Source: Dehalococcoidia bacterium
Lineage (GTDB): Bacteria > Chloroflexota > Dehalococcoidia > Bin125
DNA: 64,000 nt
NCBI GenBank assembly: GCA_963555985.3
Contig: OY820591.1
Location: 3,040,001-3,104,000, forward strand
Direction of reading: 5' to 3'
The notes beneath the pieces were generated by a model, which did not search any database, was not told where the DNA came from, and was given only the letters and a program-made list of their open reading frames with translations. Within the stretch, counting starts at the first letter, position 1; each line of letters starts with the position of its first letter. Shown piece after piece: positions 14,514 through 30,358 of this stretch. Made by a program: the position numbers and the translations under genes.

Positions 14514-15938
14514 ATGACGCACATGGCTCTGCCCACCGATTCCTGGGGACACCCGCTGACCGCCAATCCCGCCGCCGCTGAGGCCTACCGCGACGGTGTC
14601 GACCGGATGCTCGCCTACCTGCCCGAGGTGGAGGAATCGCTGGAGCGCGCGATCGAGCTCGATCCCAGCTTCGCGCTGCCCCATAGCCAACTCGGACTCT
14701 TCTATCTCTTCCGCGGCAACCCCAAGCGTGCCAGCGAACTCGCGGAGGAGGCAGCCAATCTCGCCGACCGCGCCAGCGAGCGTGAGCGCAGCCATGTCGC
14801 CATCCTCGGCGCGAGCGTGCGCGGTCAAGGCTCCAAAGCGCCCGAATGGATTGACCAACATCTGCGCGACTATCCCAGCGACGCACCCGTTTTAATGCAG
14901 TGGTTCGGAGCCAACTTCTACAACGGCGGACCGAACAAGCGCGAGCGGATGCTCGAACAGTTCGACCGGCTCGCCCCGCACTACGGCGACGACTGGTGGT
15001 TCCTCGGCTGGCACGCCTTCGCCAACCACGAGTCCGACCAGCTCGAAATCGCACGTGTGCTGGTCGAACGCAGCGCCGAACTGCGCCGCGAAAACGGTCA
15101 GGCCGCCCATGCAATGGCGCACGTCTTCTTCGAGGAGCACGATGTCGAAGGCGGCTCCGGCTGGCTCGGCGACTGGCTGACCGATCATCCCCACCGCGCC
15201 GGCTTCCACCGCCATCTCACCTGGCACCAGGCCCTCTTCCTGCTCGCCAACGGACGCCGCAGCGACGCGCTCGAACTGCACGACGACATCATCCGCCCCG
15301 GCGCTGACCCGCACGGCGACGCGCTCGGCGGCGTCGCCGATTCCGCCTCCTTGCTCTGGCGCTGCCGCCTCCACGACGGCGACGAAGCCTTCGACTGGCG
15401 AGCCATCGCCGATCTCGCCGACGGCGCATTCCCCAAGCCCGGCGTCGCCTGGGTCGACGTCCATCGCGCGATGGCGCTGGCGGCATTGGGAGACGAGGTC
15501 GGTCTGGGCAAGCTGCTCGACGGACTCTCCGAGGCCGCCAAGCGCGGACACGCCATCGCCGGCGAAGTCGTCGCCCCGACCGTAGAGGCGCTCTCCGCCT
15601 TCGGACAGGGCGACTACGCTACCGCCGCCGACGGTCTGGATGCCGTCCGCGATCGCCTGGTCGAACTCGGAGGCTCCAACGCCCAGCGCGACGTCTTCGA
15701 AGAAACCCTGGTCGAAGCCCACCTGAGAGCCAGGAATCTTGAGCGAGCGTTTGAACTGCTCAACGACCGCCTCAGTGGCGGCGCAACCGCGCGCGACCTC
15801 TTCCGCCTCGGCCGCGCCCAGACCGCGCAGGGTCAGCTCGAAGCCGCCAAAACCTCCTTCCGCCAAGCCCGAGACCTCTGGCAAGACGCCGATCCCAATG
15901 CCGCCGACGTCCAAGCCCTCCGCGAGGCCGCCGCATGA
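14514..15938 (+). CDS. TPR protein, TTC38-like
   Basis: AAHAMAHVFFE, HLTWHQALF, DSASLLWR, LGGSNAQRDVF motifs. Confidence 0.8.
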   Translation: MTHMALPTDSWGHPLTANPAAAEAYRDGVDRMLAYLPEVEESLERAIELDPSFALPHSQLGLFYLFRGNPKRASELAEEAANLADRASERERSHVAILGASVRGQGSKAPEWIDQHLRDYPSDAPVLMQWFGANFYNGGPNKRERMLEQFDRLAPHYGDDWWFLGWHAFANHESDQLEIARVLVERSAELRRENGQAAHAMAHVFFEEHDVEGGSGWLGDWLTDHPHRAGFHRHLTWHQALFLLANGRRSDALELHDDIIRPGADPHGDALGGVADSASLLWRCRLHDGDEAFDWRAIADLADGAFPKPGVAWVDVHRAMALAALGDEVGLGKLLDGLSEAAKRGHAIAGEVVAPTVEALSAFGQGDYATAADGLDAVRDRLVELGGSNAQRDVFEETLVEAHLRARNLERAFELLNDRLSGGATARDLFRLGRAQTAQGQLEAAKTSFRQARDLWQDADPNAADVQALREAAA

Positions 15939-16294
15939 CTCGTAGCTGCGCCCAGATTCAGCCCGCCACTCCCCGCCCAGACATCCTCGTTGAGGAAGAT
16001 GTTGGCGCGGATCGTGAGAGCGAGCTGGAAAAGCGCTACCACCTCTTCCTCCACGACTCTGACGACCACACCTACGAATACGTGATCGAAATGCTCGGAG
16101 CCGTCTTCGGCTACAGCAAGGAAAAAGCGTTCGCCATCGCCTCAATGATCGACGGTCACGGCCGAGGAATCGTCGAAACCGCCGACTACAACACAGTCAA
16201 GGATCACCAGGATCAGATCCACGGCTGGGGCCCCGATCCGAGGATCGCCCACTGCAAGGGGTCGCTCTCAGCGACGATCGAGGAAGCGCCGTAG
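15935..16294 (+). CDS. clpS: ATP-dependent Clp protease adaptor, ClpS family
   Basis: YHLFLHDSDDHTYEYVIEML..VFG.S.EKA..IA..ID..GR.IV; ends LSATIEEA. Confidence 0.8.
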   Translation: MTRSCAQIQPATPRPDILVEEDVGADRESELEKRYHLFLHDSDDHTYEYVIEMLGAVFGYSKEKAFAIASMIDGHGRGIVETADYNTVKDHQDQIHGWGPDPRIAHCKGSLSATIEEAP

Positions 16295-16329
16295 TTCCTG
16301 TACACATCGGCGGTCGCCAATCCGAGACT

Positions 16330-16428
16330 CCGTCATTGCCGCGCTCCGCCGCGGCAATCTCGCTGCGTTCTGCACCGACGTCCGTGCTCGACTCAGCGAG
16401 ATACCCGCGGCAAGCGCGGGTATGACGG
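16330..16428. repeat. REP/REPIN-like palindromic element, family B (CCGTCA...TGACGG)
   Basis: ccgtcattgccgcgctccgccgcggcaatctcg...cgagatacccgcggcaagcgcgggtatgacgg; homologs at 35309 and 52238. Confidence 0.85.
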
Positions 16429-16505
16429 AAGAGGCGCGGGGTCAGAGGGATCCGGCCAGAGTTCGGCTACCCTCCCACCAATCCAACCCGCCAAAGGAAC
16501 CACCA

Positions 16506-17834
16506 ATGGTCCGACTCTCCGACCTCCACCCCGAAGAAGCCCAGGGTATGCGCAACGCGATCCAGCGCTTCGCGCAGTTCGACATCGGCACGACTCCCTG
16601 GCTCACTCCGCCCCCGCTGGCGGAATCCAAGATCGCGCTGGTCACGACCGCTGCACTCCACCGCCGCGACGACCGCCCCTTCCGCTTCGGCGACCACGGC
16701 TACCGCCTGATCCCCGACGACATCGACCCCGCCGAGCTCGTCCAGACTCACGTCAGCGTCAACTTCGACCGCACCCACTTCCAACGCGACCACAACGTCG
16801 TCCTGCCGCTCGATCGGCTGCATGAACTGGTCGAGCTGGGCGAAGTCGGGGTTGCCTCCGAGTGGCACTACTCGGTGCAGGGCGCAAGTCCAAACCCGGC
16901 CGCGTTCGCGCAGGCCGGCGCGGACATCGCCCGCCGCATGGTCGACTCGGGCGTCGCCAGCGCGCTGCTCGTACCGGTTTGACCGGCCTGCACGAGCGCC
17001 GTCGGCGCCCTCTCACACTTCCTCCAGCAACACGGAATCGCCACCACCGGCATCAGCCTGATCCGCGAACACACCGAGGTGTTCAAGCCGCCGCGCGCGC
17101 TCTGGGTTCCGTTCCCGCTCGGACGGCCCCTCGGCATCGCCGACGATCCCGACTTCCAGCGCGACGTGCTCCGCAGCGCACTAGGCCTCCTGGAGACTGC
17201 GACCGAGCCCACGATCGCGGACTACCCCCAGGACGCGCCCGACGGCGGCGGAGACGGTGTCTGGGCTTGCTCCATCGCCTTGCCGCAACCTGAGTTGAGC
17301 GATCTCGAATCCGCTCTACGCGCCGAGGTCGATCTGCTCACCCCCTGGTACGACGAGGCGCGCCGACGCCGAGGCCGAACCACCGTCGGCATCAGCGGCG
17401 CGACGCCCGAGCAAATCGACGACGTCGTGTCGTTCATCGTCGCCATCGCCGAGGGCTCCGGGTTCAGCGAAGTTCCCGCCGCCGCAACCGCTCCCAACTG
17501 GACCCACAAGATGCCGCTGCTGACTCGCTTTGTGGTCGAAGACCTGCGCGCCTTCTACCAGGAGGCCGTCACCTCGCAGCCCGGTTCGGGCGCGCCCTCA
17601 CAGCACGACATGCACAGCTGGATTTTCGAAGAAACCGCGCTCGGCGAAGCGATCCGGCAGGTCGGTCAGCAGATCACCGACGCAGGCGAACCGCGCCTGA
17701 TGCGGATGCGAGGCTTCATCGTCCCCGAGGGCTTCTGGAAGGGCGAGGTCTCCTGGGGCCGTCCGCCCGAAGGCGTCCACCCGATCGACTTCATTCGCAG
17801 CGCCATCCCCTATCTAGTCGGCGAAGAGGCGTGA
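16506..17834 (+). CDS. Selenoprotein, D-proline/glycine reductase selenoprotein B (PrdB/GrdB)-like, with C-terminal extension; TGA at 16980-16982 read as Sec
   Basis: ORFs 16422-16982 and 17079-17834 are in the same frame and separated only by one TGA. Read-through gives LLVPV-U-PACTSAVG...GIATTGISLIREHTEVFKPPRALWVPFPLGRPLG (UxxC). N-terminal part has IALVTTAALH and DHNVVLPLDRLHEL. Confidence 0.88.
16994..17012 (+). promoter_or_regulatory. Candidate bacterial SECIS hairpin
   Basis: gagcgcc-GTC-ggcgccctc stem-loop; the G-initiated apical loop starts 19 nt after the UGA. Confidence 0.6.
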
Positions 17835-17843
17835 GCCCACGAT

Positions 17844-17895
17844 CCTCTCCCCCCGCAGTGCGGGGGGAGATGTCACGAAGTGACAGAGGGGGGTC
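17844..17895 (+). repeat. REP-like palindromic element, family A (forward)
   Basis: cctctccccccgcagtgcggggggagatgtcacgaagtgacagaggggggtc: two adjacent hairpins. Confidence 0.85.
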
Positions 17896-17979
17896 CGGCA
17901 AGACACCCGATAGACCGCCGCTGCAAGCGATCGCTAGGCTCACTCCACCCCGCGCCGACCGCGCCAGCGAGAATCCGCC

Positions 17980-20160
17980 GTGCCCCAATCATCCGCGCTC
18001 GACCCCCTCCACGACGCCCTCAACCAGCACTTCGGCTTCACTGACTTCCGACCCCAACAACGCGAAGCCATCCAACACATCCGCGACGGCGGCGACGCGC
18101 TCGTGCTCATGCCCACCGGCGGCGGCAAGTCCCTCTGCTACCAGCTTCCCGCCGTCCTCTCCGACGGACTCACCGTCGTCGTCTCCCCATTAATCGCGCT
18201 GATGCAGGAGCAGGTACAGGCGCTGCGCGCCAACGATCTCCGCGCCGCCTATCTCAACAGCACGCTCACCACAACCGCCGCCGCGCAGATTGAGCAGATG
18301 GTCGCCAACGGCGACATCCAACTCCTCTACGCCGCCCCGGAGCGGGTCAACACGCCCCGCTTCACCTCATTACTCGAACGCCGCCCGCCTGCGCTCATCG
18401 CCATCGACGAGGCCCATTGCATCTCCGAGTGGGGACACGAATTTCGCCCCGACTACCGCGAACTGCGCCGCCTCACCGCTCAGTTCCCCGATGTGCCTGT
18501 CGCCGCTCTCACCGCAACCGCCACGCCTCAAGTCCAGCGCGACATCGTCGACCAGCTTGACCGCCCCCGAATGCAGCGCTTCGCCACCAGCTTCATGCGT
18601 CCCAACCTCACGCTCCGGATCGTGCCCAAGCGTGAGTCGGTTGAGCGTCTGATTGAGCGGCTGCGTGAGCTTCCGCGCGAATCCGCGATCGTCTACTGTC
18701 GCTCCCGCTCAAGCGCCGAAGACACCGCCGCCAAACTGCGCAGCGCCCGTATTCCCGCTGCCCACTACCACGCCGGCATGACCGGCGACGAGCGAGCCCG
18801 CGTCCAGGACGAGTTCAGCAGCAGCCAGACTCCGGTGATCTGCGCCACGATCGCTTTCGGCATGGGTATCGACAAGCCCGACATCCGCCTCGTCGCCCAC
18901 CTCGATATGCCCCCCTCAATGGAGGGCTACTACCAGGAGACCGGCCGTGCCGGACGCGACGGCGAGCCGTCCGAATGCCTGCTCTTCTACACCCGTGGCG
19001 TCTGGGCGCAGCAGCAGTACTTCCTCCGCCAAATCCGCGACGAACGCGAGCGCGAAGCGCGCATCCGCCGCCTGCGCCGGATGATGGACTTCTGCGAGCA
19101 GCAATCCTGCCGCTGGTCGACCATCCTCAAGTACTTCGGCGAGCAGCCGCCATCCGAGTCCTGCGGTCACTGCGACAACTGCCTGGGCGAGGAGGAGGCG
19201 CCGGCCGATGCCGCATCGCCGAGACTCGTCGATCCCGCCGACCCGCCGGGGCCGCCGGGACAGGACGCGCAGCAACCGCTCAGCCCCGAAGAAGACCGGC
19301 TGTTCGAGGCGCTGCGAGCGGAGCGGTCGCGGCTGGCGAACGCGGAAGCAACCTCGGCCTACATCGTCGCCAGCAACCGGGAGTTGTCGGACATTGCGCG
19401 TCGCAAACCTCGCACGATCGCGGAACTGATCGAAATCAAGGGTATCCGTCACCGCAAGGCGGCCCGGTTCGGCCAGCAGCTGCTCGACGTGGTCGCGCAA
19501 CACTCGCAAGAAGCGGCCGACACCTTGGAGGAGACAGCGGACGAGACAGCCGGAGAGATGCAATTGACGCTCGACACGCCGCCCGAAGCCTGGCAGCAGC
19601 GCTTCAACGCCCTCGCCGCCTGGCGCAGCCTGACCAGCGACAACGAACAGTGCGATCCCTCCGACCTCCTCAGCTTCCCCGCCATGCGGGAAGTCGCCGA
19701 GCACACGCCCTCCTCAATCGAAGCGTTGTCGGCGGTGGACGGCGTCGGCGTACTTGCCATTGAGCGCTACGCCGAGGAACTCGCGCTCATCCTCGGCATC
19801 CAGCCCAAGCCCTCGGAACCGCCGCCGCCAACCTCCCGAACCTCAGATGCCGCCCCAAGCTGGCAAGTCAGCGCCGACCTCTACCAGGACGGCCACACCA
19901 TCCTCGCCATCGCCGAGCGCCGGATGCTCTCCCCGGGAACGGTGGCGTCGCACCTGACTACCGCCCTGCGCAATGGACTCGACATCGACCTCAATCCGGC
20001 GCTCCCCTCAACGAAACAGATCCAGGCCGTGCGCCGCGAACTGGGCCGAGACCCCGACGCCAGCATCGCCGACCTGCAAGAGCGCCTCGACCACCGCCTG
20101 TCGCATCCCGAGATCAGGCTCGTCCTGGCTCATCTGCACCCGCCGATGCTAAGTGACTAG
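17980..20160 (+). CDS. recQ: RecQ family ATP-dependent DNA helicase (two HRDC-like domains and C-terminal HTH)
   Basis: MPTGGGKSLCYQ, DEAHCISEWGH, ATIAFGMGIDKPD, YYQETGRAGRDG, CGHCDNC. Confidence 0.93.
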   Translation: MPQSSALDPLHDALNQHFGFTDFRPQQREAIQHIRDGGDALVLMPTGGGKSLCYQLPAVLSDGLTVVVSPLIALMQEQVQALRANDLRAAYLNSTLTTTAAAQIEQMVANGDIQLLYAAPERVNTPRFTSLLERRPPALIAIDEAHCISEWGHEFRPDYRELRRLTAQFPDVPVAALTATATPQVQRDIVDQLDRPRMQRFATSFMRPNLTLRIVPKRESVERLIERLRELPRESAIVYCRSRSSAEDTAAKLRSARIPAAHYHAGMTGDERARVQDEFSSSQTPVICATIAFGMGIDKPDIRLVAHLDMPPSMEGYYQETGRAGRDGEPSECLLFYTRGVWAQQQYFLRQIRDEREREARIRRLRRMMDFCEQQSCRWSTILKYFGEQPPSESCGHCDNCLGEEEAPADAASPRLVDPADPPGPPGQDAQQPLSPEEDRLFEALRAERSRLANAEATSAYIVASNRELSDIARRKPRTIAELIEIKGIRHRKAARFGQQLLDVVAQHSQEAADTLEETADETAGEMQLTLDTPPEAWQQRFNALAAWRSLTSDNEQCDPSDLLSFPAMREVAEHTPSSIEALSAVDGVGVLAIERYAEELALILGIQPKPSEPPPPTSRTSDAAPSWQVSADLYQDGHTILAIAERRMLSPGTVASHLTTALRNGLDIDLNPALPSTKQIQAVRRELGRDPDASIADLQERLDHRLSHPEIRLVLAHLHPPMLSD

Positions 20161-20296
20161 CTGGGGCCTACCCGCTTCGTCATTCCCGCGTAAGTGGACA
20201 CTCGCCTCGCCAACTACCGAGAAGAGATGTGCTATCATGTCGACCGAATCGTCGATGCTGTTTCTTTGGCATCGGCAGTCAGCAAGAGGATGGAAC

Positions 20297-20503
20297 ATGA
20301 TCGACCTAACCCACGCTCCACAGCGATGCGCCTGCTGCGGACACAACGAGACCATGTATCAGTTCGTTCGAGAGCAGATCGCGACCGGCGAATTGCTGAT
20401 CCCTGCCTGCCCCTCATGCCAAGGCCAGTGTGACGCCCTCTCTTTCGTTGGTGACTTGGAGGCCCTTCGGCAGCGACCCTGCCCACGTCTCCAGGCTGCC
20501 TGA
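20297..20503 (+). CDS. Small Cys-rich (zinc-ribbon-like) protein
   Basis: RBS-like agaggatgga before ATG; CACC and CPSC motifs; 68 aa. Confidence 0.5.
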   Translation: MIDLTHAPQRCACCGHNETMYQFVREQIATGELLIPACPSCQGQCDALSFVGDLEALRQRPCPRLQAA

Positions 20504-20668
20504 TCTCAGATCCACTTTATGGAGTTGATCTGGTGGCGTTGGTCTCATCGCTGCCGACGCACCCCTTTCCGCAGAGGCGCTAACCTCCGCTAAGGTGCTG
20601 TCGACACAGAATTGTGGGTGAAGGCAAGTTTGCCGCGGAAGCACCTACAGTCTGGAGGGTGGCCTGCG

Positions 20669-21694
20669 ATGGCACTACTGGACGTGCTTGTGAGAGTTGC
20701 GGGAGAGATTCCTAGGACCCAGCGCGAACTGGACTCTCTCAGCGAGGATGACGCGAGAGGTGAACTCATCGACCCGATTCTCGTCGAGTTAGGCTGGCGC
20801 AGCCCTAAGAAAGTGAGTCGCAGCTACCGTGCTGGAGAGCAAAAGAAAAAGAAGCCAGATTACGCACTATTGGACGACAACGGCACGCCGCTAGCGTTTA
20901 TCGAAGCGAAGGCTCCGGGACAGAAGCTGGCCAATCACGTGGAACAGTTGCGAGAGTACGCCGAACTCGAAGATGTAGATATCTGCGCCCTGACCAATGG
21001 AGTGTACTGGTGGCTATACTTGCCTCGGGAACCTGGTGACTTCGAGGAACGACGATTCGCAACCCTCGATGTTTCACTGTGGTTCGCAGCCCCCTCTGCT
21101 GACCTGGTACTAGAAGAGACTCTCGGATACGAGAGCCTCACAACAGGTGCCGCCGTTGGGAATGCGAAGAAGTTGCTCGAGGCGCGCAAGCGCGATGAAC
21201 GGCGACTCGCTGAGATTCCTCGGGCTTGGCAACGCCTCGTGAACGATTCCGGCACCAGCCTTTTTGATCTGGTTGCGGAGGAAGTGTTTCAGTCGATCGG
21301 CCAGCGGATACGACCAGCCGAGTTTCGTAGGGCTTTGCCACACCTCTTCGACGAAACTGATTCCCGCTCCCAAAGACATGTCACTGTAACGTTTTCGGAG
21401 ATCTTCGGCGCGGTAAACAACTATTGCTATTCCACGTATGAAGACAGCGTCCACGACAATCGTACCGCCCAAAGGCTCGCGAGAGACCTCGTGGTGTACC
21501 TAGCTCACAAGCACACTGGAGCGTCCTTTGTCGAGTTGGGGAAGCGAGTAAGTGTAGATGGCCACGAAAACGTGCAACAGAGAATCCGTCGTGTCGACGA
21601 GCAGATCAACTCGACCCATGACGGGGGCATAAGAGCAAGAACGATTCGCCGGTGGCATCGAATGATCTGTGAGCGACTTCAACTCGACCCTTGA
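20669..21694 (+). CDS. HsdR N-terminal-like PD-(D/E)xK nuclease fused to a DnaA C-terminal-like HTH
   Basis: LIDPILVELGW...KPDYAL...FIEAK...QLREYA...LTNGVYW; C-terminus ARDLVVYLAHKHTGASFVELG. Confidence 0.8.
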   Translation: MALLDVLVRVAGEIPRTQRELDSLSEDDARGELIDPILVELGWRSPKKVSRSYRAGEQKKKKPDYALLDDNGTPLAFIEAKAPGQKLANHVEQLREYAELEDVDICALTNGVYWWLYLPREPGDFEERRFATLDVSLWFAAPSADLVLEETLGYESLTTGAAVGNAKKLLEARKRDERRLAEIPRAWQRLVNDSGTSLFDLVAEEVFQSIGQRIRPAEFRRALPHLFDETDSRSQRHVTVTFSEIFGAVNNYCYSTYEDSVHDNRTAQRLARDLVVYLAHKHTGASFVELGKRVSVDGHENVQQRIRRVDEQINSTHDGGIRARTIRRWHRMICERLQLDP

Positions 21695-21771
21695 GTCGGA
21701 TTCGACAAGAAGTCTTTCGAACGAATGTCAGCGGAATGGAAGCCGCTCACTGTAATGGCAGCTTCCTTGAG

Positions 21772-22014
21772 CTAGCGGCGACGATAGCCCCTATGGCGCC
21801 CCGGTCTCCGTCGCTGCTCCTCGGCTTGTCGGTCGAGCAGAGCCATAGCCTGTTTCGTCCGTGATCGAATCTCCGCTGCGGAGAATGCAGAATCGCAATA
21901 GGGACAAGCGATGGTGTCCTTGCCCTCCACATCACGGGTGAGTTCGACAAAGACTGCCCTGCACTGAGGGCACCAAAACGACTCCTTCTGTCCGACACCG
22001 ACTGTTCTTGCCAT
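21772..22014 (-). CDS. Small zinc-ribbon protein with basic tail
   Basis: RBS caggag; CPQC and CPYC; 80 aa; directly downstream of lhr. Confidence 0.65.
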   Translation of the reverse strand: MARTVGVGQKESFWCPQCRAVFVELTRDVEGKDTIACPYCDSAFSAAEIRSRTKQAMALLDRQAEEQRRRPGRHRGYRRR

Positions 22015-22060
22015 GATGGTCTCCTGAGATACATCTGCGACCGCCTGAGGCGACAGACCG

Positions 22061-25000
22061 CTAGTCCGCCGCCACAGACCCCGACAACGCCTCCGACTCC
22101 TCCACTGCCCCATCCACCAGCGTCACCGTCCCGCCCAGACGCGAGGGCACCTTCGCGCCCGGCAACAAGATCCCCACCAGGTTGCACGGATCCGCCGCCG
22201 CGATCACCACACGCTCGCCGTCCAGCGCTTTGCGCCGCACCGCCCGCAACTGATCGAGCGCTTGCGGCAACGCAAACTGTTCCCCGATCAGACCCTGAAT
22301 GAAGCGACCGCCCCGAATCTCACCACGCGCCTCCAGGCGGCGCAGCGCACGCAGAATCTCCCGCCAGGCGAGAGTCAGACTCTCCCGCGTCGCCAACTCG
22401 CGCGAGATCACCCCGTAGCGCCGCAGCAGGAGCACAGCCATCCGCTCGGCCAACTCATCCGCCTCTTCCACATCCACCGGCGGCGGCGCAACCGGCGACA
22501 ACGCCGCCCAGCGACCGGCCGGACCTTCCCCGATGAACACCCCGCCCCCGCCATAACGCGGACGCCGCCGCCGACCGTTACGAGCCGGACGAATCAGTTG
22601 CCGCAAGCCCTGGAATCCGTCCGCATGAGCCAACCCCGACGCGACCAACTCGCGCAGCCCGTTCTCCACATCCGTCGCGATCCGTCGCGTGCCGTCCACC
22701 AATTCATCGAAGAACAGCGCCCCGCGCTCGTTCAGCATCCGCAAAATCTGGCTCGCGGCCCCGCCGTCGGCATGAACCTGCTCGGCGACATCCGGTTCAG
22801 GCGGCGGCGCAGACCGCCCCCGAGCCGCCGGCGCTGGCGCAGGACGCCGCACCGCCGCCAGCAGCGAGCGGAAATCCCGCCGCAACGCCAGTGTGATCGG
22901 CGTCGACTTGGTCGGCGCGCGCCGCGCCGCCCGAGGCGTCAACCGCGCCCACGCGATCTCCCCCGCCAAACACAGTTCGTCCAACCACGCCTCCCGATAG
23001 TCCGCCACGCGCGGAGCCAGCAGATCCCGCTCCCAGGCAGCCGCCGGCGCCTCAAACCCCTGCAACTGCTCGATCACCGCCCGTACCCCCGCCTTGCCCG
23101 TCAACCGCGTATCCGGTGTCAGCCGCTGCCAGCGCAGCAGGAAGCGCAGGTACTGCTGCACCGTGACCGGCTCGATCTCCGCTCGCAACCGAGCGATCGT
23201 GTAGCGGTGAATCCGCGCCAGCAGCCGCCGGTCGCAATACTCTTCCTCGCTCTCGTCCAGGAACTCCGGCGGGCTAAACCGTCCCCGCATGACCTCGCCA
23301 TATGCCTCAAGCTGTTGCAGCGCATAACCCACATCCCGCGCCGACAACCCGCACCGCCGCGATAATCCAGCCGCTGTAATCGGCCCCACCACCTCCATAT
23401 GACCCCGCGCCAGCCGCAGCCGCGCATCCTCCCGGTCTGCAACCTCGATCAACGCCGCTTCAGGCACCTCCAACGCCGGCTCGATCACCGCTTCCGGCAA
23501 CAGCAACTGAATCGCCGACAGGTGCTCAGCCGCAAACCAGACCGCCCCGTCCTCTGTCCGCGCCAGCGCCGCCCGACCCTCCGCAACCAACGCTTCCGCC
23601 AACGAGCGCACATGCGACAGGTTCCGCTCTCCCAACGCCACCAGCGAGATCAGCAACTCATGCAGCTCGTCCGCATCACGAACCGGCGGCAACGCCTCCT
23701 CCCGCACCCGATCAATCGCGTCCGGATCCAGCCGACCCAGATCCCGCTGCTGTTCCGGCAGCGTCCGCCGCGTCATCACCGCCCGCGCCCGCCGCTCCTC
23801 CAACGGAGCATCGTCGAGAAACCCGAACGGGTTCACGTTGATAATGCTCTGAGCCATCGGCGAGGGCGTCACCGTATCCCGAGCGTGCAGCCGAATTTCG
23901 CCGCGCTCGATCCGCTCCAGCACTCCCACTAGCGCATCGGTATCGACCGCCTCATGCAGACAGTCATCCATCGTTTGCGCGATCAGCGGATGATCGGGCA
24001 CTTCCAACGGGCCGGCCAGATTCTCCTGACACCCCACCTGAGCCGGGAACACCGCCGCCAGCAAATCGTCCGCGATCATCCGCTGCAAATTCGGCGGTAC
24101 TTCCTTCCCTCCGCGACGCCGAGGCACCGCCAGCGCCCGCGTCGCCGCCCAGCGCCAGCGCGTATTCCAGAACGGCGCGTACAACACCGCCTGCCGCAGC
24201 GACTGCTCCGCGTTCTCCGCCGACAGATAGCCAAACGCCTCCTCCAGCGGGAACGACTGCGACGGTCCCAGCGAGAGGATGATCCCCTCCTCGTTCGCCG
24301 CCGCCTGCAACTCGAAGTCGAAGCGCACGCAGAAGCGCTTACGCAGCGCCAGCCCCCAGGCCCGGTTCACGCCCGAGCCGAACGGCGCATGAACCACCAA
24401 CTGCTGACCGCCCGCCTCATCGAAAAACCGCTCAAACACCACATCGGTATCCGAGGGCATCACCTGCAACGCATCCTGCGCCGAACCCAGGTACTCGATC
24501 ATCTGCTCCGCTGCGACCGAGTTCATCCCGCACTCGCGCTGCAACCGCGCCGAAGTCGATTCCGCATCGTCAATCGTCTCCGTCACATCCCGCCGCAGAC
24601 AACCCACCTCACGCGACAACTCAACGCTCCGTCCGGGCGCTTCGCCCAGCCAGAACGGAATCGTCGGCGGCAACCCCTGCGCGTCCTCCACTCGCACCAC
24701 GCCCTTGCTCTCGACCCGCCGGATCCGCCACGAAGTGCTGCCCAACAGAAAAATATCCCCCGCCTGCGACTCAATCGCAAAGTCCTCGTTCACCGTCCCG
24801 ATGAACGCACCCTCCGGCTCCTTCACCACCCGAAAATCGCCGGTCTCCGGGATCGTCCCCCCGTTCACGATCGCCGTCAGCCGCGATCCGCGCCGCGCCC
24901 GCACCATCCCCTGGATCCGATCCCGATGCACCAGCGGCCGCGAACGCCCCCCGCCTTCGCCCACGCCGGTCGCCAGCATCTCTACGGTTTCGTCAAACGT

Positions 25001-26368
25001 CTCCCGCGCCAGCCCCCGATACGGCGCCGCCCGCCGGAAACGCTCGTACAACTCGTCCTCGCTGCACGATTCCGCCGCCGTCTCCGCCACGATCTGCTGC
25101 GCCAGCACCTCAATCGGCGCCTCCGGCTGCCGAATCCGATCCAGATCCCCGCTCTGCACCGCCCGCACCATCGCAGCGCATTCCACCAGTTCGTCCAGCG
25201 AGGTCGGGAACAGCGCCCCGTGCGGTACCCGCCCCAGCGCGTGACCCGAACGCCCTACCCGCTGCAAGAACGTCGCGATCCGCCGCGGCGAACCGATCTG
25301 ACAAACCAGATCCACGCTGCCGATATCAATCCCCAACTCCAACGAAGCCGTCGCCACCACCGCCTTCAGATCGCCCGCCTTCAGCCGCTCCTCCATCACC
25401 TGCCGACGCTCTTTCGCCAGCGACCCATGATGCCCTGCCACATTCTCCTTACCCACCCGCTCCCCCAGCCGGTGCGCCACCCGTTCCGCCAGCGCCCGTG
25501 TATTCACGAAGATCAGCGTCGTCCGGTGCTGAACCGCCAGTTCCGCCAGCCGGTCGTAGATGCTGTCCCACAACTCATGCGTCGGGATCGCCGGAATCGG
25601 AACATCGGTCGTCTCGATCCACAGCTGCAACTCCCGCTTGTGACCCAAATCCAAAATCCGGCAGGGCAGGGCCGCGCCCTCTTCGTCCACCCCCGTCAAA
25701 AACGCCGCAATCTGATCCATCGGCTTCTGCGTCGCCGACAACCCAATCCGCACCGGACGCCGCTCGGCCACATGATCCAACCGCGCCAGCGACAACGCCA
25801 AATGCGATCCCCGCTTATCCCGCACAACCGCATGAATCTCATCCACGATCACCGTCGTCACCGTGCGCAGCACCGCCCGGCTTTGTTCCGCCGTCAGCAT
25901 CAGGTACAACGATTCCGGCGTCGTAATCAAAATGTGCGGCGGATTCTTCACAATCGCCCGCCGCTCCGACTGCGGCGTATCCCCCGTGCGCAACCCCATC
26001 CGGATCCGCGGCAGCGTCACCCCCCGCTCCTCGGCCAGCGCCCGAATCTCCCGCAGCGGCTCCTCCAGGTTCCGCCGGATATCGCTCGAAAGCGCCTTCA
26101 ACGGCGACACATACAAAATCCGCACCTCATCCGGCAGCGCCCCCCGCTCCCCCTCCCGAACCAGGTCGTCAATCCCCGCCAGAAACGCCGTCAGCGTCTT
26201 CCCCGATCCTGTCGGTGCCGCCAACAACACATCCCGCCGGGTCCGAATCGCCGGCCACCCATCCTCCTGAGCAAACGTCGGCGCGCCAAACCGCCCCACG
26301 AACCAGTCCCGAACCAACGGATGAAAATCGTCCAAAGCGGACACCGGAGGAGAATCTGCCTGACTCAT
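22061..26368 (-). CDS. lhr: Lhr-family DEAD/DEAH-box helicase
   Basis: APTGSGKT, ILITTPESLYLML, DEIH, ATASLELGID, QRVGRSGH; C-terminal LLRRYGV...LEARGEIRGGRF. Confidence 0.92.
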   Translation of the reverse strand: MSQADSPPVSALDDFHPLVRDWFVGRFGAPTFAQEDGWPAIRTRRDVLLAAPTGSGKTLTAFLAGIDDLVREGERGALPDEVRILYVSPLKALSSDIRRNLEEPLREIRALAEERGVTLPRIRMGLRTGDTPQSERRAIVKNPPHILITTPESLYLMLTAEQSRAVLRTVTTVIVDEIHAVVRDKRGSHLALSLARLDHVAERRPVRIGLSATQKPMDQIAAFLTGVDEEGAALPCRILDLGHKRELQLWIETTDVPIPAIPTHELWDSIYDRLAELAVQHRTTLIFVNTRALAERVAHRLGERVGKENVAGHHGSLAKERRQVMEERLKAGDLKAVVATASLELGIDIGSVDLVCQIGSPRRIATFLQRVGRSGHALGRVPHGALFPTSLDELVECAAMVRAVQSGDLDRIRQPEAPIEVLAQQIVAETAAESCSEDELYERFRRAAPYRGLARETFDETVEMLATGVGEGGGRSRPLVHRDRIQGMVRARRGSRLTAIVNGGTIPETGDFRVVKEPEGAFIGTVNEDFAIESQAGDIFLLGSTSWRIRRVESKGVVRVEDAQGLPPTIPFWLGEAPGRSVELSREVGCLRRDVTETIDDAESTSARLQRECGMNSVAAEQMIEYLGSAQDALQVMPSDTDVVFERFFDEAGGQQLVVHAPFGSGVNRAWGLALRKRFCVRFDFELQAAANEEGIILSLGPSQSFPLEEAFGYLSAENAEQSLRQAVLYAPFWNTRWRWAATRALAVPRRRGGKEVPPNLQRMIADDLLAAVFPAQVGCQENLAGPLEVPDHPLIAQTMDDCLHEAVDTDALVGVLERIERGEIRLHARDTVTPSPMAQSIINVNPFGFLDDAPLEERRARAVMTRRTLPEQQRDLGRLDPDAIDRVREEALPPVRDADELHELLISLVALGERNLSHVRSLAEALVAEGRAALARTEDGAVWFAAEHLSAIQLLLPEAVIEPALEVPEAALIEVADREDARLRLARGHMEVVGPITAAGLSRRCGLSARDVGYALQQLEAYGEVMRGRFSPPEFLDESEEEYCDRRLLARIHRYTIARLRAEIEPVTVQQYLRFLLRWQRLTPDTRLTGKAGVRAVIEQLQGFEAPAAAWERDLLAPRVADYREAWLDELCLAGEIAWARLTPRAARRAPTKSTPITLALRRDFRSLLAAVRRPAPAPAARGRSAPPPEPDVAEQVHADGGAASQILRMLNERGALFFDELVDGTRRIATDVENGLRELVASGLAHADGFQGLRQLIRPARNGRRRRPRYGGGGVFIGEGPAGRWAALSPVAPPPVDVEEADELAERMAVLLLRRYGVISRELATRESLTLAWREILRALRRLEARGEIRGGRFIQGLIGEQFALPQALDQLRAVRRKALDGERVVIAAADPCNLVGILLPGAKVPSRLGGTVTLVDGAVEESEALSGSVAAD

Positions 26369-26454
26369 ACGTTTCGTACTCTATCTGGCAAAGAGCCAAC
26401 ACGCCAGAGGTCTACCCTCTCTCTCCTCTGGAGACTTGCACGCAAACCCTGATC

Positions 26455-26575
26455 GATCTCCCCCTCAAGGGGGAGATGCCCCAACGGGGCAGAGGGGGTG
26501 AGAACACCGCAGTCCTCTCCGGTACACCAGCTCTCCTCCTCAGTTAAGGGGAGGTCACGCAGCAACAGAGGGATC
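26455..26575 (+). repeat. Two degenerate family A REP-like copies (forward)
   Basis: atctccccctcaagggggagatgccccaacggggcagaggggg and ctctcctcctcagttaaggggaggtcacgcagcaacagaggg. Confidence 0.65.
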
Positions 26576-26750
26576 TGGACGAACACCTCACCGCACATTC
26601 CCACCCACTATGTACAGACCGCCCACCCACTTGCCAAACCAGACAGTCCATGTGAACGTATGCACGGAAGACCAAGAACGTCGCCCAACGCCGCACAACG
26701 GCTAGCGTGAGATCAGCGGATCACCGACCACCGCAAACCGGAGCACATCC

Positions 26751-28346
26751 GTGAACCTCCGCAACCGCACCATCTACATCGGCGACAACCTTAAGCGTCT
26801 GCGCGGCATCGACAGCGACTCCGTCGACCTCATCTATCTCGATCCGCCCTTCAACAGCCGCGGCGAGTACCAGTGGCCGATCGGCACCGACGAACTCGAC
26901 TGGGACGACGGCCCCACCGACGAGGACGACCTCGACGATGAAGCCCTGGAGAATCTGATCGGCGGCAACGGCATCGACAAGTTCAAGGACGCCTTCACTC
27001 TCGACGATCTCGACCAGCGCACCTTGCAGGAACTCTTGGACAACGGCGAACCCGCCGGCTACGTGATCGCGGCGGCGGGCGCAGCGGTCGGACCGGGCAC
27101 GCAAGCCTACCTCACCTTCATGTGGGAGCGCCTGGTCGAAATGCGCCGCATCCTCAAGCGCACCGGCAGCATCTACCTGCATTGCGACGACACCGAAGGC
27201 TTGTGGCTAGGAGCCCTCATGGACGCCATCTTCGGGCGATCCAGCTTTCGCAACATGATCACCTGGCAGCGCACCAGCGCTCATAACGACGCAGGCGGCT
27301 TTGGACGAATCGCGGACCATCTCCTGTTTTACGCAATGTCAAACGAATCTCTATTCGATCGTGAGGGAGTCGCGCGCGCGCTCGATCGCGGCTACGTGAC
27401 GAGGGAATACAGTCGCGGCAGAGATGACCCCAGAGGCCGATGGCGGCGAAGCGACTTGACCGGCCCCGGCATTTCCGTCGGCGAGAGCGGCCAGCCCTGG
27501 CGGGATTACAACCCCACTGAGATCGGACGCTGTTGGTCGGTACCGCGCGCAATCGGACGGGGCGAGTACGCCGATTGGATCGCCGAGAACATCATCCCGG
27601 GCTACGAAGAGATTGAGGGCGTCCACGACCGCCTCGACGCTCTCGATGCCCACGGCCTCATCCATTGGACGCGAACCGGCACGCCCGAACTCAAGCGCTA
27701 CCTGGCGGCTACGGCCGGACAGGTGCCCGGCACGATCTGGGCCGACATCAATCCGGTCGTGGCTGGCTCCAAAGAGTGGCAGCCCTGGGACACCCAGAAG
27801 CCATTGGCCCTGCTCGAGCGCGTGATCGCCGCCTCCTCCCGACCGGGCGACATGGTGCTCGATCCCTTCTGCGGCTGCGCCACCGCCTGCGTCGCCGCCG
27901 AGCGCCTCAATCGCCAGTGGGTCGGCATGGACCGTTCCCCCCGCGCCGGCATCCTCGTCCGCAAACGCCTCCGCGAACAGGACGAAGGCATCGCCATCTG
28001 GGCCCACGACGTCAACGTCACCCGAGCCGTCCCCACGCGCACCGACATCACCGAACCGCCCCTGACCAGAGCCGAACTCAAAGCGGCCTTGTTCGAGCGC
28101 CAGTCGGTCGCCGCCGACCACTACCCGATCCCCCACGCCCTCTGCGCCGGCCCGGGCTGCGACACCGCCTTGCCCATCCACCTGCTCGAAATCGACCGTA
28201 TCCGCCCCGGCGCCGCTGGCGGCGAGTACACCCCCGACAACACCCAACTCCTCTGCGGCTGGTGCAACCGCGTCAAAGGCAACCGAGACATGGACTACCT
28301 CGCCGCCCGCATCGCCCAACGCCGCCAAACAGAAGCCGGGACCTAG
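26751..28346 (+). CDS. DNA methyltransferase (N6/N4, beta class) fused to a C-terminal HNH-like domain
   Basis: YLDPPFNS (motif IV), TQKPLALLER, VLDPFCGCAT (motif I); CAGPGC...IDRIRP...GG...NTQLLCGWCNRVKG. Confidence 0.9.
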   Translation: MNLRNRTIYIGDNLKRLRGIDSDSVDLIYLDPPFNSRGEYQWPIGTDELDWDDGPTDEDDLDDEALENLIGGNGIDKFKDAFTLDDLDQRTLQELLDNGEPAGYVIAAAGAAVGPGTQAYLTFMWERLVEMRRILKRTGSIYLHCDDTEGLWLGALMDAIFGRSSFRNMITWQRTSAHNDAGGFGRIADHLLFYAMSNESLFDREGVARALDRGYVTREYSRGRDDPRGRWRRSDLTGPGISVGESGQPWRDYNPTEIGRCWSVPRAIGRGEYADWIAENIIPGYEEIEGVHDRLDALDAHGLIHWTRTGTPELKRYLAATAGQVPGTIWADINPVVAGSKEWQPWDTQKPLALLERVIAASSRPGDMVLDPFCGCATACVAAERLNRQWVGMDRSPRAGILVRKRLREQDEGIAIWAHDVNVTRAVPTRTDITEPPLTRAELKAALFERQSVAADHYPIPHALCAGPGCDTALPIHLLEIDRIRPGAAGGEYTPDNTQLLCGWCNRVKGNRDMDYLAARIAQRRQTEAGT

Positions 28347-28359
28347 TCGGCTGTGCCCT

Positions 28360-28659
28360 CTAGCCAAACCCCAAAATGATTCCCACCGCCAGCGCCGTCC
28401 CCGCCAGCAGAATCCCTACCGCCTGCATGATCAGCTTCACGATCCGCGCCTCACGCTCCGCTGCCCGCGCGTCCGCCTCCGCGATCGCCCGCAGCACTCG
28501 CCCGATCTCTAGGCTCAGTCGATCCTGCGTCGCGTACTCCGAGAGCGCTTCACTCATCTGCTCCTCCAGCTCCTGAACAAACTCCGTCGCCGGCTCCGCC
28601 TCCGCAATCTGCCCACCCACCAGGATGTCTCGCAACCGCGCCGTATTGAAGATCGCCAT
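28360..28659 (-). CDS. Small coiled-coil protein with C-terminal TM helix (DUF1640/CCDC90-like)
   Basis: MAIFNTARL...ATQDRL...IMQAVGILLAGTALAVGIILG. Confidence 0.6.
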   Translation of the reverse strand: MAIFNTARLRDILVGGQIAEAEPATEFVQELEEQMSEALSEYATQDRLSLEIGRVLRAIAEADARAAEREARIVKLIMQAVGILLAGTALAVGIILGFG

Positions 28660-28860
28660 TACAACCCCCTCAGCACCAGCATACCGACCGAACAGCTCAC
28701 CAGGACACATCCCCAACTTGATCACCGAACATCAGTGCTTGTAAGATCGACGATCCATTCCCGCGCCAAACCCGCCGTAAAGCTCCCATGCCCGCCATCC
28801 AAACGCCCCAACACAGACCAACACATCCTCAAACAACCCCCCTCCAAACCCAAACACCAG

Positions 28861-29015
28861 CGAACGCCACCGAACGGAATCGAACGGAATCGAACACCAC
28901 CGAACACCTAAACCTGAACAAACCTGAACGCCCCGATCGCCAATACCCCAGAAAACACAGGAGATCCGTGATTTCGAGCGCCCGAAAAAATTCTCCGCTG
29001 AACACCTGAACACCG
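28861..29015 (+). repeat. 10-bp-periodic direct repeats (CGAACnnnnn x5, AACCTGAAC x2) plus AAAAAATTCT tract
   Basis: cgaacgccac cgaacggaat cgaacggaat cgaacaccac cgaacaccta aacctgaaca aacctgaacg. Confidence 0.8.
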
Positions 29016-29047
29016 CTACTCTCAGCCATACCCCGAAGGAGCCGACC

Positions 29048-30358
29048 ATGACCACCCAAATCGACTGGCAGCCCGTCTTTGACCAGGCCCTTGACTACTT
29101 CGTCAACTACCTCCAGATCAACACCACCAACCCTCCGGGCAACGAGAAACCCGCCGCCCGCTGGCTCGGCGCCATCCTCGCCGACGAAGGCATGGAGGTC
29201 GAGTACGTCGAAATCCAGCCCGAGCGCGAAGCCGTCTTCGCCTGGCTGCGCGGCGACGGCTCCAAGCGCCCGATGATGCTCTGCAACCACACCGATGTCG
29301 TCCCCGTCGAGGAGGCCTACTGGACCAAGCCCGCCTTCGAGGGCCACATCGAAGACGGCAAGGTCTACGGGCGCGGCGCGGTCGACATGAAGGGCTGCGG
29401 CATCATGCACCTGATGACCATGCTGCTGCTCAAGCGCCACAACGTCCCCCTCAAGCGCGACCTCGTCTTCTGCGGCGTCCCCGACGAGGAGGCCGGCTCA
29501 GTCTGGGGCATGGACTGGCTCTGCAAAAACCGCCCCGACCTCGTCGATGTCGAGTTCGAACTCTCCGAGGGCGGCTCCGGCTCGACCCAGCTGATGGGCG
29601 AAGAGGCCAACATCTTCTCCGTCGCCACCAACGAAAAAGACATCTGCTGGCTCCAACTCACCTCGATCGGCACCCCGGGCCACGGCTCCCGCCCCCACTA
29701 CGACAACTCCGCCGTCCACCTCGTCAACGCGCTCTCCAAGCTGGCCGCCTGGGAGCGACCCGTCACGATCACGCCCTCGACCCAAGTCTGGCTCGATCGC
29801 CTGATCGAGGAAGGCCATCTGCCCGCCCTCGAGGACGAAGACGAACTGGCCGCCCTGATCACCGAGCATCCCGGTACCCACGCCATGTTCATCAACACGC
29901 TCAACGTGACCATGGTCAACAGTGGGATCAAGGCCAACGTGATCCCGGCCAAGTCCGAGGCCGTGATCGATTGCCGCCTGCTCCCCGGTCAGGACCGCGA
30001 GGACTGGCGGCAACAGGTCATCAGCGTGATCGACGACGACCGCATCGAGGTCGAATTCTCCGGCTGGGACCAGGACCAGCCGGTCGAAGTCGATTGGGAC
30101 ACCGAACTCTACCGAACCATCGAAACCGTCGTCACCGATGCAGTCGAAGACGCCACCGTCGTCCCCAGCACCTGCGTCGGAGGCACCGACAACCGCTTCC
30201 TCCGCCAGCAGGGCATCCCCGCCTACGGCTTCATCCCCGTCCTCCTCACCCCCGAAGAAGCCGCCGGCTTCCACGGCAACGACGAGCACATGTCCATCGA
30301 AAACCTCAACATGGGAGTCGAGCTCACCTACGAAATCGTCCGCCGCATGGTGACGTAG
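29048..30358 (+). CDS. M20/M25/M40 family metallo-hydrolase
   Basis: NHTDVVP, GRGAVDMKG, DEEAG, GGTD, HGNDE. Confidence 0.92.
   Translation: MTTQIDWQPVFDQALDYFVNYLQINTTNPPGNEKPAARWLGAILADEGMEVEYVEIQPEREAVFAWLRGDGSKRPMMLCNHTDVVPVEEAYWTKPAFEGHIEDGKVYGRGAVDMKGCGIMHLMTMLLLKRHNVPLKRDLVFCGVPDEEAGSVWGMDWLCKNRPDLVDVEFELSEGGSGSTQLMGEEANIFSVATNEKDICWLQLTSIGTPGHGSRPHYDNSAVHLVNALSKLAAWERPVTITPSTQVWLDRLIEEGHLPALEDEDELAALITEHPGTHAMFINTLNVTMVNSGIKANVIPAKSEAVIDCRLLPGQDREDWRQQVISVIDDDRIEVEFSGWDQDQPVEVDWDTELYRTIETVVTDAVEDATVVPSTCVGGTDNRFLRQQGIPAYGFIPVLLTPEEAAGFHGNDEHMSIENLNMGVELTYEIVRRMVT

Follow-up and report, generated by a model that had tools for sequence, protein, structure and literature searches.

What does a restriction-type nuclease do with the DNA-binding domain of the replication initiator DnaA? 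The question is raised by a gene in a 64,000-nucleotide stretch of a Dehalococcoidia bacterium genome (GCA_963555985.3, contig OY820591.1, positions 3,040,001 to 3,104,000), hereafter the window, which lies between genes for the helicases RecQ and Lhr and encodes a protein, P0001, in which the two are fused (coordinates in Table 1). An initial annotation made from the window alone took P0001 for an HsdR_N-type PD-(D/E)xK nuclease with a C-terminal domain resembling DnaA domain IV, set between two small zinc-ribbon genes in a lower-GC patch, and proposed that it may be directed to DnaA-box-like or origin-like sequences as a candidate anti-plasmid or anti-phage effector. The analysis reported here upholds both domain assignments and leads, with confidence about evenly balanced, to the reading that P0001 is an accessory, modular and stand-alone restriction-like nuclease whose target would be set by an exapted and re-specified DnaA domain IV. 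GGAGG lies about 10 nt 5′ of the ATG of the open reading frame (ORF); an upstream TTG at 20612 would give a longer ORF, and the ATG is taken as the start because the aligned homologues all begin at the same 'MAL..' methionine. An AlphaFold2 model of the protein, built from 27 homologues, has a predicted local distance difference test score (pLDDT) of 85.3, with low confidence solely in the linker at residues 229-237.

The N-terminal part of P0001 is a nuclease domain of the HsdR_N/RecB-like class. Pfam HSDR_N (PF04313) matches it with an expect value (E) of 8.9e-11 and 42.4 bits, above the cut-off of 25.1, and HSDR_N_2 at E 1.1e-4, while the motifs quoted in the initial annotation are all present, namely KPDY (with D64), IEAK (E79 and K81), QLREY (Q93 and Y97) and TNG. 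D64, E79, K81, Q93 and Y97, the last two forming the QxxxY motif of RecB/HsdR-type nucleases, are invariant in an alignment of 27 homologues, and across 149 sequences D64, E79 and Q93 remain invariant with K81 and Y97 at least 90% conserved, so that the nuclease is predicted to be active. An all-against-all structural search of the P0001 model by VIA-align matched residues 1-160 to the restriction enzymes BpuSI (3s1s, Z 13.6), an HsdR fragment (3h1t, Z 12.9) and DrdV (7lo5, Z 12.5). The HsdR and Type IIG enzymes (PF04313; 3h1t, 2w00, BpuSI 3s1s, DrdV 7lo5) have the fold and the D...ExK plus QxxxY set in common with P0001, and in BpuSI, as in P0001, the N-terminal nuclease is followed by a helical connector, which here has conserved positions at L152, A166, P184, W187 and L198 and makes up, with the nuclease, the constant 'N-module' of a larger family. 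Unlike these enzymes, P0001 lacks a superfamily 2 (SF2) translocase, a methyltransferase and a specificity domain and ends in a DNA-binding-type domain. Pfam and NCBIfam scans found no helicase domain in its 341 residues, with NCBIfam NF046051 matching over profile positions 1-102 of 768 alone, and neither hsdM nor hsdS is adjacent, the neighbours being recQ, lhr and two small cysteine-rich ORFs, Zn1 and Zn2.

The C-terminal part is, by sequence and model comparison, a true DnaA domain IV homologue. Pfam Bac_DnaA_C (PF08299) matches P0001 over profile positions 4-68 of 69 at E 0.0012 and 19.2 bits, under its cut-off of 31.5, which is exceeded in the relatives P0005 (39.6 bits), P0029 (34.2 bits) and P0039 (78.8 bits), and the NCBIfam DnaA model TIGR00362 places its positions 331-425 of 437 on residues 219-318 (E 7.4e-5). 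The genome's own DnaA, a 478-residue protein encoded at about 64 kb on contig C1 of this genome (G000), aligns by BLASTP from residues 377 to 476, reaching its last residues, with P0001 241-339 at 33% identity (E 3e-13). In the structural search, residues 240-339 superimposed on 1j1v, the complex of E. coli DnaA domain IV with a DnaA box, at Z 11.1 and a root-mean-square deviation (rmsd) of 3.0 over 88 of 94 residues, and the C-domain matched the B. subtilis, M. tuberculosis and Aquifex DnaAs with Z 10.5, 10.2 and 9.3, the next-best unrelated helix-turn-helix (HTH) proteins being DeoR (Z 5.7) and TrpR (Z 4.9). The resemblance to DnaA that had been noticed by eye is thus real homology, borne out in the fold of four DnaA structures. 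A Foldseek search of the whole model against the PDB gave no match at E≤0.001, with DnaA and HsdR present there as weak matches because the query has two domains, which VIA-align resolved. DnaA domain IV (PF08299; 1j1v, 3pvp, 8btg, 1l8q) and the P0001 tail have the same fold, and the host's own DnaA is the closest, including the C-terminal helix. P0001 differs from a replication initiator in lacking domains I-II and the AAA+ domain III, and from DnaA domain IV in its replaced box-reading residues and sub-threshold Pfam score.

The source of the domain can be traced to DnaA of the host's own lineage. Searched against 151 Chloroflexota genomes, the C-terminal 106 residues of P0001 scored 45.6 bits (E 1.7e-11) with the genome's own DnaA and at most 22 bits with all others. 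A maximum-likelihood tree combining nine nuclease C-domains with domain IV of 38 DnaAs from relatives (117 columns, a short alignment with several long branches and a midpoint root) placed P0001, P0002, P0004, P0005, P0029, P0030, P0031 and P0032 in one clade (support 98/90) that is sister to the host DnaA (100/99), with P0039 standing apart, grouped with DnaAs from a different genus within the family, and every bootstrap tree required two changes of the nuclease/DnaA label. Independent support for this origin comes from two residues rare among DnaAs and present in that of the host, a Cys where 95% have Arg and an Ala where 95% have Gly, which occur in six and seven of the eight clade members, respectively. 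The architecture of P0039 is repeated in P0176 (88% identical) and P0177 (75%), and its nearest N-module relatives bear other C-termini, from which it follows that the DnaA domain was captured at least twice. The tree itself points to two captures that were independent of each other, both from the DnaA of this bacterial family. The fusion is therefore no one-off product, recurring in nine sequences of the P0001 clade and three of the P0039 group. Among the matches of an exhaustive phmmer search, only the partial sequence P0003 and P0029, P0030, P0031, P0005 and P0032 correspond to P0001 along its full length. A word-based search with the C-terminal 106 residues recovered only P0001 and P0002, reflecting its limit of sensitivity and not absence.

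The N-module belongs to a far larger family in which the tail is exchanged. A word-indexed search with P0001 returned 28 relatives and the exhaustive phmmer search 2667, 882 and 20 cluster representatives at thresholds of E≤1e-3, E≤1e-10 and E≤1e-30, respectively; the best 150 align over about residues 1-215, that is, nuclease and connector. A hidden Markov model (HMM) of the N-module matches 147 of 147 listed cluster representatives, while an HMM of the commonest tail matches 87 of these and 66 of 72 genome loci and has no match in the DnaA_C-type members, P0001 carrying DnaA_C instead. As judged from profiles and models, this commonest tail corresponds to the C-domain of SeqA: of 85 representatives scanned, 10 have a Pfam SeqA match at E≤0.01, the family profile finds SeqA structures with E between 3.8e-6 and 5.4e-5, and the model of P0006 (pLDDT 89.9) superimposes on the V. 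cholerae and E. coli SeqA structures with Z 10.0 and 9.6 (rmsd 2.3-2.4). When the tails of 151 proteins were clustered by BLAST, using the 141 of at least 60 residues and leaving out 10 shorter ones, 32 clusters were obtained, comprising 93 SeqA_C-type, nine DnaA_C-type and three Mrr_N-type tails with the rest in small groups; Mrr_N, HTH_23 and sigma-70 region 4 are among the other tails of the family. Over residues 1-234 P0039 shares 87% identity with P0181, beyond which the two proteins have nothing in common, and this break marks a recent tail swap at the linker. The nuclease-SeqA_C relatives (e.g. P0006, P0038) have N-modules 30-49% identical to that of P0001, fall in the same length class with the linker in the same position and, in relatives of the window's genome, lie next to recQ in the same way, differing in that their tail is a SeqA C-domain and that of P0001 is DnaA_C. 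Family members are labelled 'hypothetical protein' or 'type I restriction endonuclease, partial' in the source databases.

Further variation on this architecture was seen in passing. Several members of 460-500 residues (P0024, L028, L043, L045) seem to bear two tandem SeqA_C-type domains, as seen in the alignment row of P0024, and a member at L070 2827-4053 joins the N-module to a domain that matches PD-T4-3, a defence protein acting as a single gene, over its C-terminal half (E 4e-42). Two tandem nuclease paralogues lie immediately 3′ of recQ at G152 C3 766139-769930. The genome of the window itself holds a second N-module paralogue of 325 residues (L002 1423-2400, at about 2.705 Mb on contig C1), with 40% identity over residues 25-136 and a C-terminus to which Pfam assigns nothing.

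Relatives were found in 382 of 400 candidate stretches from one-genome-per-species collections. The 77 retained loci come mostly from metagenome-assembled genomes (MAGs) of sponge symbionts, spanning Dehalococcoidia, Acidimicrobiia, Spongiisociaceae, Poribacteria, Latescibacterota and Gemmatimonadota with a few archaeal ones. A scan of metagenome contigs with the DnaA_C-type alignment yielded 255 relatives among 589 stretches, none of them a further locus of DnaA_C type, so that the genomic context of this type is known from the window and one related locus, L004. In a phage collection only the nuclease core found matches, in four phage records and at less than 40% identity, and the PHROG 'endonuclease' profile matches the nuclease core alone; P0001 is not evidently phage-borne.

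The residues with which DnaA reads its box have diverged in the P0001 clade. Positions conserved in at least 85% of the 38 DnaAs were compared with the eight clade members (P0001 and seven others), which retain the hydrophobic core (Y, L, S, I, V) and in which A271, L274, Y277, A279 and L337 form an invariant core of the C-domain. Among the positions taken to contact the DnaA box, as in 1j1v, the Arg and the Asp of the recognition helix are each replaced in all eight members, the His is kept in five, a later His of the same helix in one, the otherwise invariant Gly following that His in four, and the Arg pair of the basic loop is gone. The DnaA motif R-D-H-T-T-V..H is represented in P0001 by V-D-G-H-E-N-V-Q-Q, its recognition helix running G298-H-E-N-V-Q-Q-R-I-R-R-V309, and the aligned block differs in each member of the clade (GHEN, RRRN, EHAT, NHAS, SHSS, PEMT, PETT and RHPT). 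The net charge of the C-domain is +2 in P0001 and ranges from +5 to -8 in the clade, compared with a DnaA mean of +2.9. With the box-reading residues lost or variable in the clade, targeting of a canonical DnaA box, as had been proposed at the outset, is unlikely for P0001. The protein probably does without canonical box reading and may read something new, while the acidic members of the clade perhaps read nothing. The separate P0039 group (P0039, P0176 and P0177) keeps the basic loop and the R-D-H-T-T-V helix, and DnaA-box targeting is plausible for that group alone.

The gene is also variable between strains. A second copy of window positions 14802-29691 is present in the same MAG as a 13.7-kb contig (C2, locus L235), which is 97.6% identical to the window up to the lhr stop codon (22061) and 94.4% identical leftwards from about recQ residue 425 (19256). 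Between these points 1576 unrelated bases replace the 2804 of the window, the nuclease is absent and the 3′ part of recQ is about 41% identical and frameshifted. C2 stems from a strain that was co-assembled or else belongs to the 7.5% contamination of the MAG. In Logan contigs from four public runs (three samples, one study) the cassette, the P0001 sequence included, occurs without a single difference, while in one of those runs variant contigs end near 19272 and begin near 22125, a pattern that fits two coexisting haplotypes, cassette-plus and cassette-minus. No terminal direct or inverted repeats of note were found around the cassette, so that a transposon-like insertion is not indicated. 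The lower-GC patch seen initially is real, with GC 0.54-0.60 across about 20000-22000 and 0.65-0.70 either side, and the GC content at third codon positions (GC3) of the nuclease gene is 0.60 compared with 0.80-0.83 in the flanks. The same holds in the family: at 63 of 70 loci the nuclease has a lower GC3 than the flanking genes (mean difference -0.117).

Table 1. Features of the nuclease locus in window coordinates
Feature	Position	Strand	Evidence
Whole gene, 341-aa nuclease-DnaA_C fusion (P0001)	20669..21694	+	ORF, translation; start from homologue alignment
HsdR_N/RecB-like PD-(D/E)xK nuclease core, residues 1-135	20669..21073	+	Pfam PF04313, invariant residues, fold
Catalytic codons D64, E79, K81, Q93, Y97	20858-20860; 20903-20905; 20909-20911; 20945-20947; 20957-20959	+	
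Alpha-helical connector, residues 136-228, long helix 161-192	21074..21352	+	Model secondary structure, conservation
Disordered linker, residues 229-240, C-terminal exchange junction	21353..21388	+	pLDDT <50 at 229-237; P0039/P0181
DnaA domain IV homologue (HTH), residues 241-341	21389..21691	+	Profiles, BLASTP, fold, tree
recQ, 726 aa (DEAD, Helicase_C, RecQ_Zn_bind, two HRDC, HTH_40)	17980..20160	+	Pfam, synteny
lhr, 1435 aa, right-hand conserved flank	22061..26368	-	Pfam DEAD, WH_Lhr, DEAD_assoc, WH3/WH4_Lhr
Zn1, 68 aa, seven Cys, upstream of the nuclease, in the variable cassette	20297..20503	+	ORF, conserved in L004
Zn2, 80 aa, CxxC...CxxC, putative ORF downstream of lhr, in the cassette	21772..22014	-	Translation, sub-threshold Pfam
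Strain-variable cassette: recQ 3′ third, Zn1, nuclease, Zn2	19257..22060		blastn of C2 against the window; variant contigs

From these features a mode of action can be proposed for P0001. Nuclease and connector (residues 1-228) would form a cutting unit, which the flexible linker would join to an exchangeable C-terminal DNA-binding domain that decides the enzyme's place on DNA, and the protein does have separate recognition-type and cleavage domains in one stand-alone chain, with linker pLDDT below 50 and no partner gene found family-wide, the commonest neighbour cluster occurring in 10 of 72 loci. In most family members this domain is the SeqA C-domain, a reader of methylated GATC-type DNA, and in the P0001 lineage it has been replaced by domain IV of the host lineage's DnaA, with divergence of the box-reading residues following capture. 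Because those residues have diverged, the canonical DnaA box is not the predicted target of P0001, which would most likely bind a new DNA sequence and less likely no DNA at all. The gene belongs to a low-GC cassette exchanged between strains at the recQ-lhr junction.

A role in defence or genetic conflict would suit such an enzyme. PADLOC-DB 2.0 gives partial N-terminal matches of REase_I and IIG type on P0001 (best E 1.2e-6, residues 35-111). Of 71 loci, 22 have a neighbour no more than two genes from the nuclease that matches a PADLOC model at E≤1e-10, with RecQ/Lhr-type helicase matches excluded, the models being PDC-M30/M41 pairs (seven loci), HEC-06, HEC-09, Csx1, AbiEii, SoFic, PDC-S01, S11, S37, mad2, mad3 and several methyltransferases. 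In all, 31 of 250 neighbour proteins (12%) match PADLOC compared with three of 56 window ORFs, about a two-fold excess. The anti-plasmid or anti-phage role put forward in the initial annotation is accordingly plausible, given the modular build, low GC3, strain variability and neighbourhood of the nuclease, and falls short in that no PADLOC model matches the whole protein.

The absence of a whole-protein model is one of several points that weigh against the preferred reading. The defence-neighbour signal is suggestive only, its baseline being small and non-independent and many of its matches being candidate systems or methyltransferases. Should the C-domain still read DNA, no host-protecting gene has been identified here, and none of the public runs that carry the cassette is recorded as RNA. 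Four of the eight members of the clade have a C-domain of net negative charge (-3 to -8), which is a poor fit with DNA binding in those members. In this bacterial family the junctions between nuclease and recQ are tight in both orders, overlapping or separated by 7-21 bp, which could mean a role in repair.

The last of these points bears on the main rival, a housekeeping nuclease linked to RecQ and Lhr. Like RecJ in the RecF pathway, it would act together with RecQ at stalled forks or gaps, its SeqA_C or DnaA_C domain guiding it to DNA that is newly replicated or close to an origin. In the lineage of the window the nuclease always adjoins a recQ orthologue (two HRDC domains plus HTH_40), near lhr. 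The adjacency is seen in 10 of 77 genome loci, all from Chloroflexota/Dehalococcoidia MAGs, often with stop and start codons that overlap, the nuclease lying upstream of recQ in seven (L005, L007, L008, L010, L014, L015 and L046), where several junctions range from an overlap to 7 bp, and downstream in L004, L006 and L009 as in the window, and it recurs in the genomes G152, G157, G161 and G172. Such a coupling would agree with the derivation of both swapped-in domains from replication-origin regulators and with the inclusion of the C-terminal third of recQ in the variable cassette. Its weakness is that co-occurrence with recQ is patchy: among 11 same-family genomes with a recQ orthologue of at least 55% identity the nuclease lies beside it in five and not in six, haplotype C2 has recQ without it, and outside the lineage of the window the family is not adjacent to recQ. 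Moreover, GC3 is atypical family-wide and the nuclease diverges fast, being 61% identical between the window and L004 where recQ is 75% identical. A complex prediction of P0001 with RecQ residues 430-726 gave no answer (score 0.00) and speaks neither for nor against binding. On balance repair coupled to RecQ is rather unlikely. Were the domain instead a protein-interaction module that has ceased to bind DNA, acting as a decoy or sensor that mimics DnaA domain IV towards a phage or host factor or as an autoinhibitory lid on the nuclease, possibly with Zn1, the loss of the DNA-reading residues, the conservation of the hydrophobic core and C-terminal helix and the acidic C-domains would all be accommodated, as would the presence of Zn1 in both available DnaA_C-type loci and not in SeqA-type loci. 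We consider this distinctly unlikely, as no partner has been identified, the two Zn1 loci are related (72% nucleotide identity across Zn1 and nuclease), every other identified C-domain of the family is a DNA binder, and the C-domains of P0001, P0002 and P0029 are net positive.

The reading proposed initially, in which DnaA boxes remain the target of the domain and cleavage takes place at or close to the origins of plasmids or phages that depend on DnaA, or at the host oriC, draws on the origin of the domain in host-lineage DnaA, on the +2 charge and Arg-rich helix of the P0001 C-domain, and on the near-canonical motifs of the P0039 group, for which it is credible. For P0001 it is very unlikely given the replacements at the box-reading positions, which differ from member to member, and self-cleavage at host boxes would have to be avoided, with no protective mechanism evident. 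That P0001 is a decaying remnant, a chance fusion drifting to loss with no current function, is highly improbable. The C-domain does evolve fast and scores under the Pfam cut-off, the gene is absent from the sister haplotype and RNA runs carrying it are lacking, yet the ORF is intact in eight full-length clade members with 66 invariant positions, including all the catalytic residues together with the C-domain core, the sequence is identical in four runs, and the model is confident. A combined scheme, rather doubtful as a whole, would have a mobile nuclease family copying the host's DnaA DNA-binding domain at least twice to yield origin-directed nucleases that seek out DnaA boxes of the host type, with the P0039 group serving in the restriction of DnaA-dependent replicons or as an oriC suicide or replication-control switch, and the P0001 clade representing a later stage of an arms race, its reading head rewritten, in each member differently, against self-targeting or for new targets, or turned into a DnaA-mimicking decoy regulated by Zn1.

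The neighbouring genes add some detail to the locus. As for the flanking zinc-ribbon genes of the initial annotation, two Cys-rich ORFs are present and Zn1 is conserved in L004 (3601-3807), with equal length, 51 of 68 residues identical and all seven Cys kept, while the zinc-ribbon assignment of Zn2 rests on sub-threshold Pfam matches and no homologue of it was found in related loci. Zn1 was not found at useful E-values in 40 relatives. It has weak matches to DUF6510 (E 0.0065) and to a Lar-like PHROG (E 0.0054), the latter too weak to use in naming it a Lar-like restriction-alleviation protein. The lhr gene is 74-80% identical in eight related loci, and its convergent pairing with recQ is conserved across the lineage of the window. 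recQ and lhr match the PADLOC DpdF and DpdJ (E 1e-181 and 0) and BrxH models strongly, here as in L005-L010; membership of a dpd system was considered and set aside, as this is probably generic helicase similarity and the window holds no further dpd gene. Directly upstream of the recQ/nuclease pair, window 17079-17834 (+) encodes a 251-residue protein with no Pfam, PADLOC or PHROG match that is conserved in the same place in five related loci (63-69% identity) and duplicated in L007.

Other genes of the window and its relatives encode functions of defence type. The methyltransferase nearest to the nuclease, of N6_N4_Mtase type, is encoded just past lhr and 5 kb off at 26751-28346 (+); it is also present in the nuclease-less haplotype, and its relatives adjoin the nuclease in L061 and lie near it in L017 and L008. 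A Type II methyltransferase-like ORF lies at 36457-37353 (+) and a Fic/DOC-family protein (PADLOC SoFic, E 3.5e-73) at 8296-9495 (+). In Acidimicrobiia (L016, L022, L033 and L044) a DUF5131 protein that matches PADLOC PDC-M30B/M41B at E about 1e-105 is repeatedly the immediate neighbour of the SeqA-type nuclease, and a PDC-M30A/M41A partner frequently accompanies it.

Separate recognition and cleavage domains are a feature of FokI, DpnI, Mrr and other Type IV/IIM enzymes. The layout of P0001 is presumably comparable to that of FokI or of Type IV/IIM enzymes such as DpnI, in that a non-specific or weakly specific nuclease would be tethered to a DNA-reading domain, and a profile scan identified Mrr_N in one member of the nuclease family. 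The domain order and the families involved differ from those of FokI, DpnI and Mrr. A precedent for the recruitment of DnaA domain IV onto another DNA-processing enzyme exists in Y1/HUH proteins of the TnpA_REP-like subclass 2.1.2, in which, according to the accessible part of the paper, Bac_DnaA_C or HTH_23 is fused at the C-terminus and Bac_DnaA_C is suggested by the authors to recognise a new target (PMC6006769). The catalytic domain in those proteins is an HUH tyrosine transposase where P0001 has a PD-(D/E)xK nuclease, and that same part of the paper gives no evidence of capture from the host's own DnaA (PMC6006769). SeqA domains fused to RAMA domains are described in restriction-modification contexts in the available portion of another study (PMC4738411). 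The open-access main texts searched yielded no account of an HsdR_N nuclease joined to either SeqA_C or DnaA_C, no paper devoted to the nuclease-SeqA_C family and no tie of Bac_DnaA_C to nucleases of this kind.

If the preferred reading is correct, it would define a large family hitherto labelled 'hypothetical protein', with at least 882 representatives at E≤1e-10, a constant nuclease and about 30 alternative C-terminal domains. Its members are concentrated among the bacterial symbionts of sponges, across several phyla, and this community is reported, in the accessible parts of two studies, to be rich in defence genes (PMC5649159, PMC5099237). It would also mean that, in an unusual turn of evolution, a nuclease has twice exapted the domain with which DnaA, a protein essential to the host, binds DNA, and since one capture is near-canonical and the other diverged at the DNA-reading positions, the two would provide a natural series for following how the specificity of a DnaA-type HTH changes. 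The SeqA_C and DnaA_C versions of the enzyme could then be small single-chain nucleases directed by methylation state or by sequence.

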